Source of the DNA: Escherichia coli
Lineage (GTDB): Bacteria; Pseudomonadota; Gammaproteobacteria; Enterobacterales; Enterobacteriaceae
NCBI RefSeq assembly: GCF_030013205.1
Contig: NZ_CP122648.1
Length of the DNA: 64,000 bases
Strand: one strand, 5' to 3'
Positions within the stretch are counted from its first letter, which is position 1; the number at the start of each line of letters is the position of its first letter. The notes under the pieces are model-generated. The model searched no databases and had not been told where the DNA came from. It saw only the letters and a list, made by a program, of their open reading frames with translations. The position numbers were made by a program, and so were the translations under genes. This document shows positions 1 through 12,479 of the stretch, piece by piece.

Positions 1-146
1 GATTCATTCTTACCGCAGGCGCGGGTTCGAGGTTAAGAAAGCTCTCAGTCTCGACTATCGGCACTGGATAATCTCTGTCAGGCTGCCTTATTCCGAACGC
101 CCACCACGTGCGTCCCGCACTTTCCAGCAACGGATCTGGAGGTAAC

Positions 147-1196
147 GTGCGGGTATTACTTAGACCTGTTCTGGTGCCTGAGCTTGGGCTGGTGGTCCTT
201 AAGCCGGGCCGTGAATCCATACAGATATTTCATAATCCTCGAGTGCTGGTGGAACCGGAACCAAAAAGCATGCGTAATCTGCCATCCGGAGTCGTTCCTG
301 CCGTTCGCCAGCCGCTGGCGGAAGACAAAACATTGCTGCCGTTTTTTAGTAACGAACTGGTGATTCGTGCTGCTGGCGGCGTTGGCGCATTGTCCGACTG
401 GCTATTACGTCATGTTACATCCTGCCAGTGGCCTAATGGCGATTACCATCACACTGAAACAGTCATTCACCGTTATGGTACCGGCGCAATGGTGTTGTGC
501 TGGCACTGCGACAACCAACTGCGTGACCAGACATCGGAATCACTGGAGCTGCTTGCTCAACAAAATCTGACAGCATGGGTGATTGACGTCATCCGTCACG
601 CAATAAGCGGTACGCAGGAGCGGGAATTATCTTTGGCTGAATTATCCTGGTGGGCGGTCTGCAATCAGGTGGTGGATGCACTACCTGAGGCTGTATCGCG
701 TCGTTCGCTGGGATTACCAGCGGAAAAAATCTGCTCGGTGTACCGCGAAAGCGACATCGTACCGGGAGAGCAGACCGCCACCAGCATATTGAAACAACGC
801 ACAAAAAATCTTGCACCGTTGCCTTACGCCCACCAGCAACAAAAATCACCACAGGAAAAGACGGTGGTAAGAATCACCGTTGATCCAGAGTCTCCGGAAT
901 CTTTCATGAAGCTGCCTAAACGTCGCCGCTGGGTTAAGGAGAAATACACACGTTGGGTTAAGACACAGCCGTGTGCTTGCTGCGGTATGCCAGCCGACGA
1001 TCCGCATCATCTGATTGGTCACGGGCAGGGCGGAATGGGAACAAAAGCACATGATCTCTTTGTGTTGCCTTTGTGCAGAAAGCATCACAACGAGCTGCAT
1101 ACGGATACAGTGGCATTTGAAGATAAGTATGGCTCCCAACTGGAGCTGATATTTCGTTTTATCGATCGCGCGCTGGCAATTGGCGTACTGGCGTAA
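147..1196 (+). CDS. ydfU: DUF968-family prophage protein with C-terminal Cys/His cluster (HNH-like)
   Basis: ORF track 108..1196. GTG at 147 is preceded by GGAGGT and gives the 349 aa length recalled for K-12 YdfU. C-terminus carries CACCG...HH...CRKHH. Confidence 0.65.
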   Translation: MRVLLRPVLVPELGLVVLKPGRESIQIFHNPRVLVEPEPKSMRNLPSGVVPAVRQPLAEDKTLLPFFSNELVIRAAGGVGALSDWLLRHVTSCQWPNGDYHHTETVIHRYGTGAMVLCWHCDNQLRDQTSESLELLAQQNLTAWVIDVIRHAISGTQERELSLAELSWWAVCNQVVDALPEAVSRRSLGLPAEKICSVYRESDIVPGEQTATSILKQRTKNLAPLPYAHQQQKSPQEKTVVRITVDPESPESFMKLPKRRRWVKEKYTRWVKTQPCACCGMPADDPHHLIGHGQGGMGTKAHDLFVLPLCRKHHNELHTDTVAFEDKYGSQLELIFRFIDRALAIGVLA

Positions 1197-1209: not shown

Positions 1210-1962
1210 ATGAACCTTGAAGCCTTACCAAAATATTACTCCCCAAAATCTCCAAAATTGAGCGATGACGCTCCAGCGACAGGCACCGGTTGTTTAACAA
1301 TTACGGATGTAATGGCAGCGCAGGGGATGGTGCAGTCGAAAGCACCACTTGGGTTGGCCTTATTTCTGGCAAAAGTTGGTGTTCAGGACCCTCAGTTTGC
1401 GATTGAAGGCCTGCTAAATTACGCGATGGCACTGGATAACCCGACATTGAACAAATTGAGTGAAGAAATCCGGTTACAGATTATTCCTTACCTCGTGAGT
1501 TTTGCCTTTGCTGATTACTCCAGGTCTGCGGCAAGTAAGGCTCGCTGTGAGCATTGTTCAGGTACGGGATTTTATAATGTATTGCGCGAAGTGGTGAAAC
1601 ACTACAGACGCGGGGAATCTGTAATCAAGGAAGAATGGGTGAAGGAACTATGTCAGCATTGCCATGGTAAGGGCGAAGCCAGCACAGCGTGCAGAGGGTG
1701 TAAGGGTAAAGGGATTGTTCTGGATGAAAAAAGAACCCGGTTTCATGGCGTACCGGTATATAAGATTTGTGGGCGTTGTAATGGAAACCGGTTTAGTCGT
1801 TTACCGACCACGCTGGCACGACGTCATGTCCAGAAGCTGGTACCAGACCTGACCGATTATCAGTGGTATAAGGGGTATGCGGACGTCATTGGTAAACTGG
1901 TAACAAAGTGCTGGCAGGAAGAAGCATACGCGGAAGCGCAATTGAGGAAGGTGACGAGATAA
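1210..1962 (+). CDS. quuQ: Late-gene antitermination protein Q
   Basis: ORF 1180..1962; internal ATG at 1210 gives 250 aa. Cys-rich zinc-finger-like motifs (CEHCSGTG, CQHCHGKG, CRGCKGKG, CGRCNG). Position is immediately upstream of the late promoter/terminator and lysis genes. Confidence 0.8.
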   Translation: MNLEALPKYYSPKSPKLSDDAPATGTGCLTITDVMAAQGMVQSKAPLGLALFLAKVGVQDPQFAIEGLLNYAMALDNPTLNKLSEEIRLQIIPYLVSFAFADYSRSAASKARCEHCSGTGFYNVLREVVKHYRRGESVIKEEWVKELCQHCHGKGEASTACRGCKGKGIVLDEKRTRFHGVPVYKICGRCNGNRFSRLPTTLARRHVQKLVPDLTDYQWYKGYADVIGKLVTKCWQEEAYAEAQLRKVTR

Positions 1963-2896: not shown

Positions 2897-3112
2897 ATGT
2901 CAAATAAAATGACTGGTTTAGTAAAATGGTTTAACGCTGATAAAGGTTTCGGCTTTATTTCTCCTGTTGATGGTAGTAAAGATGTGTTTGTGCATTTTTC
3001 TGCGATTCAGAATGATAATTATCGAACCTTATTTGAAGGTCAAAAGGTTACCTTCTCTATAGAGAGTGGTGCTAAAGGTCCTGCAGCAGCAAATGTCATC
3101 ATTACTGATTAA
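2897..3112 (+). CDS. cspB: Cold-shock protein CspB
   Basis: 71 aa [24 protein letters not shown]... with RNP1-like motif (KGFGFI); long upstream leader typical of cold-shock genes. Confidence 0.9.
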
Positions 3113-3393
3113 AATTCATCGCTCGTCTGTATACGATAACGAAGAAGGCTGATGCCTGAGTAGAGATACGGACAGAGTAGTGAATATTGGATCTCTTTAA
3201 TAAAAAGTAAGGAGGTCCAATACATGAAACAATGGCTAGCATATTTGGCAAAATCTTAATCAGGAAAAGTATGCTAACCATTGTGGTGAAGTGCAGGTTT
3301 GCTGAATGAATAGTTTTACAGCAGAAGCTAACTGCTGGCATGGCAAAACAAAGTGCGTAAGTGGATGACTCCCACAAAAAGCACCACAATCTC

Positions 3394-3417
3394 AAACCCG
3401 CTCAGGCGGGTTTTTTA
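3394..3417 (+). terminator. Intrinsic terminator downstream of cspB
   Basis: Stem CCCGC / GCGGG with loop TCAG, followed by TTTTTT. Confidence 0.6.
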
Positions 3418-3475
3418 TTATCTGCTTTAAATATATTATTAAAATATAAAAAATACTTGTTACTAATAAAATCAA

Positions 3476-4397: not shown

Positions 4398-5421
<1,024 letters not shown>

Positions 5422-5782
5422 GGTAATATTAAATCGGAACATTTACATCGCGGAATGTAAAATTTAAATAAAAAGGACTCTTCCATGAGCCAAAATTCCT
5501 GAAATCTTAAGGGTAAGATAAAAGGTCTTAATCAGAATGACACGTTTTATTAATAAATAAAGCTATTCTTTCATTGCTGTGTTTTTCTTTACAAAAGTAA
5601 TCCTTGCTATGGGTGGTTAATCATGCGTTAATGGTGTTCTGGTTTGTTACAAATTTATCTGAAGCAGTCATTGTTATAATTTTATTATTTGTACCTCTTG
5701 AGATTTCCTTGTTGGTTTTTCTCTCTGATATTTTTTTCGGACCATTCTGCCCAAGGGCTAATTTCTTCAAAAGGTAATAATT

Positions 5783-5995
5783 ATGTCTAACAAAATGACT
5801 GGTTTAGTGAAATGGTTTAACCCTGAAAAAGGTTTTGGTTTCATCACGCCGAAAGATGGCAGCAAAGATGTGTTTGTCCATTTCTCAGCAATTCAGAGCA
5901 ACGATTTCAAAACATTAACTGAGAATCAGGAAGTTGAATTTGGTATTGAGAACGGACCTAAAGGTCCTGCCGCTGTTCATGTAGTGGCGCTTTGA
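5783..5995 (+). CDS. cspI: Cold-shock protein CspI
   Basis: 70 aa [26 protein letters not shown]..., a paralogue of cspB. Confidence 0.9.
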
Positions 5996-10149: not shown

Positions 10150-11904
10150 ATGCGTTATGTGCGGGTTAACGCTCCTGCAGGTGCAACATCTGGAAAATAT
10201 TACCCTGTTGTTGTTATGCGTTCTGCTGGCTCAGTAAGCGAACTGGCATCAAGGGTCATTATCACCACGGCACCGCGAACCGCAGGCGATCCGATGAATA
10301 ACTGCGAGTTTAACGGATTTGTTATGCCTGGTGGCTGGACTGACAGGGGGCGTTATGCTTATGGAATGTTCTGGCAATATCAAAACAATGAACGAGCCAT
10401 CCACTCAATAATGATGAGTAATAAGGGCGATGATTTGCGCTCTGTGTTCTATGTTGATGGCGCTGCTTTCCCTGTTTTTGCGTTTATCGAAGATGGCCTG
10501 TCAATATCCGCACCTGGTGCTGATCTCGTTGTTAATGATACGACCTATAAGTTTGGGGCAACAAATCCAGCGACTGAATGTATCGCGGCGGACGTTATCC
10601 TTGATTTTAAGAGTGGGCGTGGTTTTTATGAGTCTCATTCGTTAATCGTTAACGATAACTTGTCGTGCAAAAAACTTTTTGCCACAGACGAAATTGTAGC
10701 GCGTGGTGGTAATCAGATTCGAATGATAGGTGGGGAGTATGGTGCATTATGGCGTAATGATGGCGCTAAAACTTACCTGCTGCTTACCAATCAAGGTGAT
10801 GTTTATGGTGGCTGGAATACATTAAGACCGTTTGCTATTGATAACGCAACCGGCGAACTGGTTATTGGAACCAAACTGTCCGCAAGTCTGAACGGTAATG
10901 CATTAACAGCAACAAAGCTGCAAACGCCAAGACTGGTTTCTGGTGTTGAGTTTGATGGTTCCAAAGATATTACTTTAACCGCCGCGCATGTGGCTGCTTT
11001 TGCCAGAAGGGCAACGGATACATATGCCGATGCGGATGGTGGCGTTCCCTGGAATGCCGAATCAGGCGCTTACAATGTCACCCGCTCTGGCAACAGCTAT
11101 ATTCTGGTTAACTTCTATACCGGAGTCGGAAGTTGCCGGACATTGCAGATGAAGGCGCATTACAGAAATGGAGGTCTGTTCTACCGTTCCTCAAGAGATG
11201 GCTATGGTTTTGAGGAAGACTGGGCAGAAGTTTATACCTCGAAAAATCTTCCACCAGAAAGCTACCCAGTCGGTGCACCAATCCCGTGGCCATCAGATAC
11301 CGTTCCGTCTGGTTATGCCCTGATGCAGGGGCAGACTTTTGACAAATCTGCTTACCCGAAACTTGCAGCCGCTTATCCGTCAGGCGTGATCCCTGATATG
11401 CGTGGCTGGACGATTAAGGGCAAACCTGCCAGTGGTCGGGCCGTATTGTCTCAGGAACAGGACGGCATTAAATCGCACACCCACAGCGCCAGCGCATCCA
11501 GTACGGATTTGGGGACGAAAACCACATCGTCGTTTGATTACGGCACTAAATCCACGAATAACACCGGGGCGCATACCCATAGTGTTAGCGGTACGGCTGC
11601 TTCAGCCGGTGCACATACCCATTCGATAACATTTGTTTCAGGTGGCACCAAAGGTGCTCCGGGAAGTGGATCACCTGATTATTCTAAATACAGTGTTAAC
11701 ACTTCTTCTGCAGGCGCTCATACGCACTCTGTATCGGGTACTGCTGCAAGCGCAGGTGCACACGCACATACTGTAGGTATTGGTGCGCATACGCACTCGG
11801 TTGCGATTGGTTCACATGGACACACCATCACCGTTAACGCTGCTGGTAACGCGGAAAACACCGTCAAAAACATCGCATTTAACTATATTGTGAGGCTTGC
11901 ATAA
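10150..11904 (+). CDS. stfQ: Side tail fibre protein fragment (Stf-like C-terminal region)
   Basis: 584 aa ORF with repeated GAHTHS motifs near the C-terminus, typical of lambda Stf / T-even long-tail-fibre tips; followed by a Tfa gene; upstream end abuts the terminase deletion junction. Confidence 0.6.
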
Positions 11905-12479
11905 TGGCATTCAGAATGAGTGAACAACCACGGACCATAAAAATTTATAATCTGCTGGCCGGAACTAATGAATTTATTGGTGAAGGTGATGCATATATTC
12001 CGCCTCATACAGGTCTGCCAGCAAACAGTACCGATATTGCACCGCCAGATATTCCGGCTGGCTTCGTGGCTGTTTTCAACAGTGATGAGTCATCGTGGCA
12101 TCTCGTTGAAGATCATCGGGGTAAAACGGTTTATGACGTGGCTTCCGGCGACGCGTTATTTATTTCTGAACTCGGTCCGTTACCGGAAAATGTTACCTGG
12201 TTATCGCCGGAAGGGGAGTTTCAGAAGTGGAACGGCACAGCCTGGGTGAAGGATACGGAAGCAGAAAAACTGTTCCGGATCCGGGAGGCGGAAGAAACAA
12301 AAAACAACCTGATGCAGGTAGCCAGTGAGCATATTGCGCCGCTTCAGGATGCTGCAGATCTGGAAATCGCAACGGAGGAAGAAATCTCGTTGCTGGAAGC
12401 ATGGAAAAAGTATCGGGTATTGCTGAACCGTGTTGATACGTCAACTGCACAGGATATTGAATGGCCAGCACTGCCGTAG
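11904..12479 (+). CDS. tfaQ: Tail fibre assembly protein (Tfa family)
   Basis: 191 aa; start overlaps the stf stop; conserved Tfa C-terminal region. Confidence 0.8.

Follow-up and report, generated by a model that had tools for sequence, protein, structure and literature searches.

The characterised protein closest in sequence to the HNH core of the ydfU gene product of the Escherichia coli stretch analysed here (64,000 nucleotides of contig NZ_CP122648.1, hereafter the window) is Gp16 of the Staphylococcus phage phiNM1, a RecA-binding nickase whose activity RecA enhances (PMC12817073). Other described relatives of this core are Ref, a RecA-dependent HNH endonuclease (PDB 3PLW) encoded by phage P1, which also encodes the full-length YdfU homologue PdcB, and YbcO of E. 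coli DLP12 and phage 82 (DUF1364, PDB 3G27), a single-domain protein of 96 amino acids (aa) and predicted function. A comparable genomic slot is occupied in lambda by Rap (NinG), a nuclease of the nin region that is predicted to have a His-Me finger and attacks branched intermediates of recombination (PMC5714182). Jablonska et al. (2017; PMC5714182) placed DUF968 and DUF1364 in His-Me finger group 7, naming YdfU and YbcO (3g27), gave RusA and Q as neighbours and proposed a part in recombination similar to those of NinG and Ref, and the zinc-finger HNH motif of DUF968 was described by Curtis et al. (2014; PMC4118853). The HNH assignment of YdfU, its neighbours and the recombination hypothesis are thus already published; an earlier interpretation of the window made from its letters (the sequence-only reading), which placed an HNH-like protein in a nuclease or recombination slot before Q, is supported by the present analysis and is not new.

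Positions 147–1196 of the window are ydfU, as the sequence-only reading had called them, and belong to the Qin prophage. The first 2200 bases are 100% identical to E. coli chromosomes annotated with ydfU (DUF968) followed by ydfT (antitermination protein Q), in which a Qin-type prophage carries dicB, relBE, hokD and rem upstream and cspF, cspB, essD and rrrQ downstream of ydfU/ydfT. The protein scores 256.6 bits against Pfam DUF968 (PF06147; gathering threshold 27.8 bits, E = 1.6e-76), residues 160–346 covering the complete profile (positions 1–171), and matches PHROG 96, ‘HNH endonuclease’, over its full length (E = 3e-170), scores that chance could not produce; an NCBIfam scan of the protein gave no match. 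A sequence search of the PDB with the single YdfU protein gave nothing significant, and one with the family profile retrieved YbcO only (E = 0.74). We consider it probable, with moderate confidence, that YdfU is a nin-region DNA nuclease composed of two His-Me finger (HNH) folds, which would nick or cut replication or recombination intermediates.

The HNH-like Cys/His cluster that had been noticed near the C-terminus (CACCGMPADDPHHLIGHGQGGMGTKAHDLFVLPLCRKHHNELH; residues 276–318, nucleotides 972–1100) does align with Gp16 (BLASTP, 41% identity over 59 aa, E = 3e-10), and the structure prediction and profile comparison that had been proposed for the C-terminal domain gave a predicted beta-beta-alpha fold and an hhalign probability of 93.5% to Gp16, respectively. 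The residues mutated in Gp16 have counterparts in YdfU: C145/C148/C181/H184 of Gp16 correspond one to one to C276/C279/C310/H313 of YdfU, and H157/H185/H189 correspond in the same manner to H288/H314/H318. Gp16 itself matches Pfam HNHc_6 at 4.9e-117 and also lies above the DUF968 cut-off. The best fold match of the YdfU core is Ref, which it also matches in sequence (BLASTP, E = 2e-4; hhalign probability, 66%). These alignments show that the cluster C276–H318, within the C-terminal ~90 residues, corresponds to a canonical zinc-stabilised HNH (His-Me finger) core of the same lineage as P1 Ref, phiNM1 Gp16 and YbcO, in which H287–H288 are assigned by alignment as the source of the general base and D303, H314 and H318 as the residues holding the catalytic metal.

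A search of 1.84 billion representative proteins gave 2899 hits, from which 28 diverse full-length homologues (27–80% identity) were aligned; such homologues occur in lambdoid phages of Escherichia, Shigella, Salmonella, Klebsiella, Yersinia and Edwardsiella, in Vibrio phages and in P1-like phages. The elements expected of a His-Me finger are present in YdfU, namely a beta-hairpin followed by a helix (beta-beta-alpha), the general-base histidine at the end of strand 1, represented by H287–H288 in that strand (kept in 26/28 and 25/28 homologues, respectively), and the predicted metal histidines of the helix, H314 and H318 (25/28 each), together with the structural Asn/Asp, D303. H288 aligns both with H157 of Gp16 and with the HH pair of Ref. 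Residues C93, C118, W119, K258, C276, D303, P308 and G329 are invariant. All members of the catalytic set H287/H288/D303/H314/H318 are retained in 25 of the 28 homologues, and the zinc tetrad of the C-terminal domain is intact in 22, the remaining six having lost C279 and C310/H313 together while retaining the catalytic residues. Most probably, YdfU would act as a metal-dependent DNA nickase or endonuclease of the nin region. Directly before the core lies a basic patch (K255–K272), in which K258 is invariant and P257 and V271 are near-invariant; as Ref has an analogous basic stretch at its N-terminus (PMC4330346), this patch is inferred to contact DNA. The features of the gene and its surroundings are as follows.

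1–145, plus strand: 3' end of an upstream open reading frame (ORF) for a 92-aa hypothetical protein (WP_012304870 in NZ_CP080235), from the annotation of the identical region and from sequence.
138–142, plus strand: GGAGG, a Shine-Dalgarno-like sequence 4 nucleotides 5' of the ydfU GTG, read from sequence.
147–1196, plus strand: ydfU coding sequence, 349 aa, GTG start and TAA stop; Pfam DUF968, PHROG 96.
147–620, plus strand: N-terminal domain (residues 1–158), a small beta/alpha region and then a predicted beta-beta-alpha module.
423–509, plus strand: N-domain Cys/His tetrad, C93 (423–425), H101 (447–449), C118 (498–500) and C121 (507–509), followed by D122–N123.
537–806, plus strand: helical linker (residues 131–220) with a conserved ELxWWA motif, at the beginning of the Pfam DUF968 profile.
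831–857, plus strand: probably flexible linker (residues 229–237) of low confidence in the model (predicted local distance difference test, <50), variable and gapped in the alignment.
909–962, plus strand: basic patch K255–K272 (KLPKRRRWVKEKYTRWVK), directly before the HNH core, recognised by conservation.
972–1100, plus strand: predicted HNH/His-Me finger core, with zinc ligands C276, C279, C310 and H313 and the catalytic/metal set H287, H288, D303, H314 and H318.
1210–1962, plus strand: ydfT/quuQ, the Q antiterminator, 13 nucleotides 3' of ydfU (Pfam Antiterm, E = 3.6e-54, and annotation).

In its N-terminal half, YdfU seems to contain a further copy, now inactive, of the fold of the HNH core. 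In the predicted structure, the module comprises a helix (residues 78–89), two strands (105–110 and 113–118) and a further helix (119–125), and structure prediction and conservation together support residues ~76–130 as a probable second HNH-like beta-beta-alpha zinc module. It carries a second Cys/His cluster, absent from the sequence-only reading, of the form C93-x7-H101-H102 ... C118-W-H-C121-D122-N123. Position 101 is Cys or His in 27/28 homologues, position 121 in 28/28, and D122 is kept in 26/28; all four positions (93, 101, 118 and 121) are Cys or His in 27/28, so that this tetrad is better kept than the C-terminal zinc site and is the best-conserved feature of the family. It is a putative structural zinc site of a degenerate HNH-like module, which is probably non-catalytic because the 28-homologue alignment contains no conserved histidine in strand 1 that could serve as a general base.

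Comparison of the N-terminal half with known HNH proteins gave values of 5.1 for ScoMcrA, 4.7 for IscB, 4.3 for EcoKMcrA, 4.0 each for Cap5, Cas5-HNH and GVE2 HNH, 3.9 for a second Cap5, 3.7 for a second IscB, 3.6 for Ref, 3.4 each for ZRANB3 HNH and Hpy99I, and 3.3 for YbcO. Profile–profile alignment of the N- and C-terminal domains was weak (E = 0.02–0.075) and lay in the register expected of a duplication, pairing W85 with W270, C93 with C276 (with a one-position offset in hhalign) and C118 with C310 and placing D122 opposite H314. For the N-domain, scans of 49 members against Pfam and a profile search of the PDB gave chance hits only, and the N-terminal region contains no NinB match, a NinB/Orf-like N-terminal domain being characteristic of HNHc_6 proteins. 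The N-domain can also stand as a separate PHROG family (phrog_11007). The folded N-terminal region of 250 aa distinguishes YdfU from Ref, which has a disordered basic N-terminus of 76 aa and an insertion after the HNH helix, and makes it ~250 residues longer N-terminally than YbcO.

Several fused proteins were also observed. P0003, P0004 and P0006 (607 aa) are YdfU-Q fusions (DUF968 + HNHc_6 + Antiterm), which are probably frameshift variants or assembly errors since ydfU and Q lie in different frames in the window and their fusion would need an indel. In P0125, P0145, P0156, P0170, P0189, P0190 and P0256, fragments of tail-tip, tail-fibre, portal or capsid proteins are joined to an N-terminal piece of YdfU, probably as deletion chimeras from decaying prophages; fusions of the N-terminus to tail, portal, capsid or glycine-rich domains at first seemed informative but were discarded and are best read as prophage-decay or assembly chimeras.

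Homologues of ydfU are nin-region genes, with the replication genes on one side and the late activator on the other, and this position, together with the RusA gene adjacent in most relatives, supports the proposal of a nuclease or recombination slot. Synteny was counted in 80 closely related IMG/VR loci (relatives of ≥84% identity), a set suited to synteny and not to diversity. RusA lies directly 3' of ydfU, between ydfU and Q, in 63 of these loci, and ydfU adjoins Q directly in 16, the minority arrangement also found in the window, where the two genes are separated by 13 nucleotides (1197–1209) and RusA is absent. The claim that Q directly follows ydfU is correct for this locus (1210–1962). 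RusA is adjacent or nearby also in SfV, YeP3, EPP-1, a Klebsiella phage, in which the ORF is unannotated, and metagenomic contigs. Because RusA adjoins ydfU in most relatives, YdfU accompanies this Holliday-junction resolvase and does not replace it. In Klebsiella phage 1 LV-2017, the unannotated gap just 5' of the ydfU homologue (~3047–3447) encodes the RusA-like ORF (MKLTLPFPPSVNSYWRAP...).

In the mechanism that we propose, the degenerate N-terminal module, the helical linker and the basic patch K255–K272 would bring the active HNH into place on DNA or a partner protein. YdfU would then nick or cut D-loops, forks and nicked circles in the delayed-early phase, would work alongside RusA, and might, by analogy with Ref and Gp16, be stimulated by RecA (PMC3973344, PMC12817073).

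Several points weigh against this proposal. RecA involvement in YdfU action may be expected from this analogy, which is its sole basis, and the geometry of the metal site in the HNH core is a model prediction. The protein stays just below the cut-off of Pfam HNHc_6 (PF16784, the family of Gp16 and phiETA Orf20) (26.4 versus 26.6 bits), aligning only with the HNH part of the profile (123–184), and does not reach that of RecA_dep_nuc (PF16786; 18 versus 26.9 bits), and a Foldseek search of the PDB gave no significant match for YdfU. Three of the 28 homologues, P1 PdcB among them, lack the catalytic histidines but have retained four cysteines; since this clade has lost the histidines and kept the whole architecture, the shared function of the family may not need catalysis. 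In P1, pdcB is dispensable (PMC10695390, PMC10067587), and mutation of the catalytic histidines of Gp16 relieves its toxicity only partly (PMC12817073). Finally, ydfU is still counted as uncharacterised (PMC11551758), and no published biochemical or genetic assay of YdfU was found in the literature.

PdcB (4905–5948 of the P1 locus) shares 26% identity with YdfU over 349 aa (E = 4e-40) and keeps both Cys clusters, but it has PYI in place of PHH, Q at the position of H314 and E at that of H318, so that the catalytic residues are lost; pdcB is located directly 5' of the late-promoter activator gene lpa, as is ydfU of Q. Tentatively, and with a probability that we regard as low, YdfU and PdcB may represent a distinct class of two-module His-Me finger proteins, in which the pseudo-HNH domain would target a Ref/Gp16-type nickase to RecA-coated or branched DNA. 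RecA-assisted nicking would then act upstream of RusA in lambdoid and P1-like phages, e.g. in starting or biasing recombination-dependent replication, and in catalytically dead members, of which PdcB is one, targeting or binding would be the sole role left.

The PdcB clade also bears on the explanation, in our view doubtful, that YdfU works mainly by binding DNA or protein without catalysis, for instance as a scaffold for recombination or replication or as their regulator, its HNH residues being dispensable or vestigial. That clade retains the full architecture, both zinc sites and the place before the late activator, yet is devoid of H287/H288/H314/H318, and the highest conservation in the family falls on the N-domain tetrad and not on the active site. 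On the other hand, retention of all five catalytic residues in 25/28 homologues, including the six without structural zinc ligands, points to selection on catalysis, and the relatives Ref and Gp16 are active nucleases.

We give about the same small chance to the explanation that YdfU is a host-directed or conflict nuclease, which would favour lytic growth by damaging or arresting the chromosome of the host or by acting against rival phages or elements. Such an activity would recall Gp16, which inhibits host growth and replication and condenses the nucleoid (PMC12817073), and Ref, which sensitises lysogens to ciprofloxacin (PMC4713147). In K-12, moreover, a strong Rho-dependent terminator 5' of ydfU holds the gene of the cryptic Qin prophage silent and has been interpreted as suppressing toxic prophage genes (PMC9160355); the gene itself is intact in this cryptic prophage. 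However, PADLOC gave no meaningful match of YdfU to known defence-system proteins, and the tight nin-region linkage with RusA fits the processing of DNA intermediates better than an attack on the host.

That YdfU resolves Holliday junctions or D-loops, as a functional counterpart of lambda Rap (NinG) or RusA, is improbable. Although ydfU lies in the same genome region as rap, and Rap is likewise a predicted His-Me finger protein (PMC5714182), YdfU has no Pfam match to NinG (PF05766) and no significant BLASTP match to Rap, and the profile alignment of the two proteins covers only the CxxC motif (13 columns; hhalign probability, 6.7%). RusA, furthermore, stands beside the YdfU homologue in 63 of the 80 close loci and in several distant ones, and a second resolvase would therefore be redundant.

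HNH proteins associated with packaging, as well as homing ones, are common in phages. That YdfU is one of these, either an HK97 gp74-like protein aiding terminase at cos or a free-standing homing endonuclease, is nevertheless very hard to credit despite the frequency of both kinds (PMC12817073, introduction), because ydfU lies before Q and not beside terminase (nohA/terminase is ~7 kb downstream), SfV has a separate small HNH at its genome end beside the packaging genes in addition to its YdfU homologue, and the fixed syntenic place of ydfU, with the same upstream ORF in 77/80 loci, is unlike sporadic homing insertions.

The gene following the ydfU homologue encodes a Q of PF03589 (Qin, SfV and YeP3), a Q of PF06530 or DUF1133, a Q of PF06323, or, in P1-like elements, Lpa. 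A specific functional tie between YdfU and Q was rejected, as at least four unrelated Q families (PF03589, PF06530, PF06323 and DUF1133) and Lpa follow the gene; because the late activator varies in this manner, the association of ydfU with Q is positional and not bound to one Q. Q of the window also carries a DnaJ-like CXXCXGXG zinc motif beside Antiterm (Pfam DnaJ_CXXCXGXG, E = 1.3e-8, residues 148–193).

On the 5' side, the 92-aa ORF directly precedes ydfU in 77 of the 80 close loci and is not conserved in more distant clades, and a Pfam scan of this ORF (window 1–145; copy in the identical region, 11867–12145) assigned it to no family. Its TAA (143–145) falls one base short of the ydfU start, which, together with its presence beside ydfU in 77/80 loci, suggests that the two genes are translationally coupled. 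A conserved small upstream partner gene (the 92-aa ORF, PdcA and others) was considered and rejected, the upstream ORFs being unrelated between clades. The ydfU ORF, annotated from GTG 147, extends 5' to GTG 108 in its longest form; both forms end at 1196. The start at GTG 147 is supported because GGAGG (138–142) and the upstream TAA (143–145) immediately precede it and because the N-termini of 27 diverse homologues align with it at M-R/K-x-L-L. A scan for promoters and terminators gave nothing above shuffled expectation and no promoter-like site between ydfU and Q; a terminator-like hairpin with a T-rich tail at 1130–1148 (plus strand), inside the 3' end of ydfU, is probably due to chance, the number of such sites not exceeding the shuffled expectation.

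The ydfU-Q region was matched in 4921 of 5426 complete E. coli genomes, and ydfU-like genes are thus present in most genomes of the species. In Stx2 phages, homologues lie just 5' of the Q gene, and Q controls toxin expression in these phages. The link between ydfU and haemolytic uraemic syndrome found in a genome-wide association study (PMC11950266) most likely reflects linkage to Stx2 prophages, since homologues of ydfU occur in Stx2 phages.

For a genome scan, the present finding is an ordinary one, since earlier papers already contain the HNH assignment, the neighbours and the recombination hypothesis. New points of modest added value are the probable second, degenerate HNH-like domain and the PdcB clade without catalytic residues, both of which suggest specific mutants, and the counts that link ydfU with RusA. 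If YdfU is truly a RecA-assisted nickase like Ref and Gp16, it could influence how prophages are induced and recombine with one another and how antibiotics and phages act in synergy, and programmable Ref-like nucleases are of some interest as tools.
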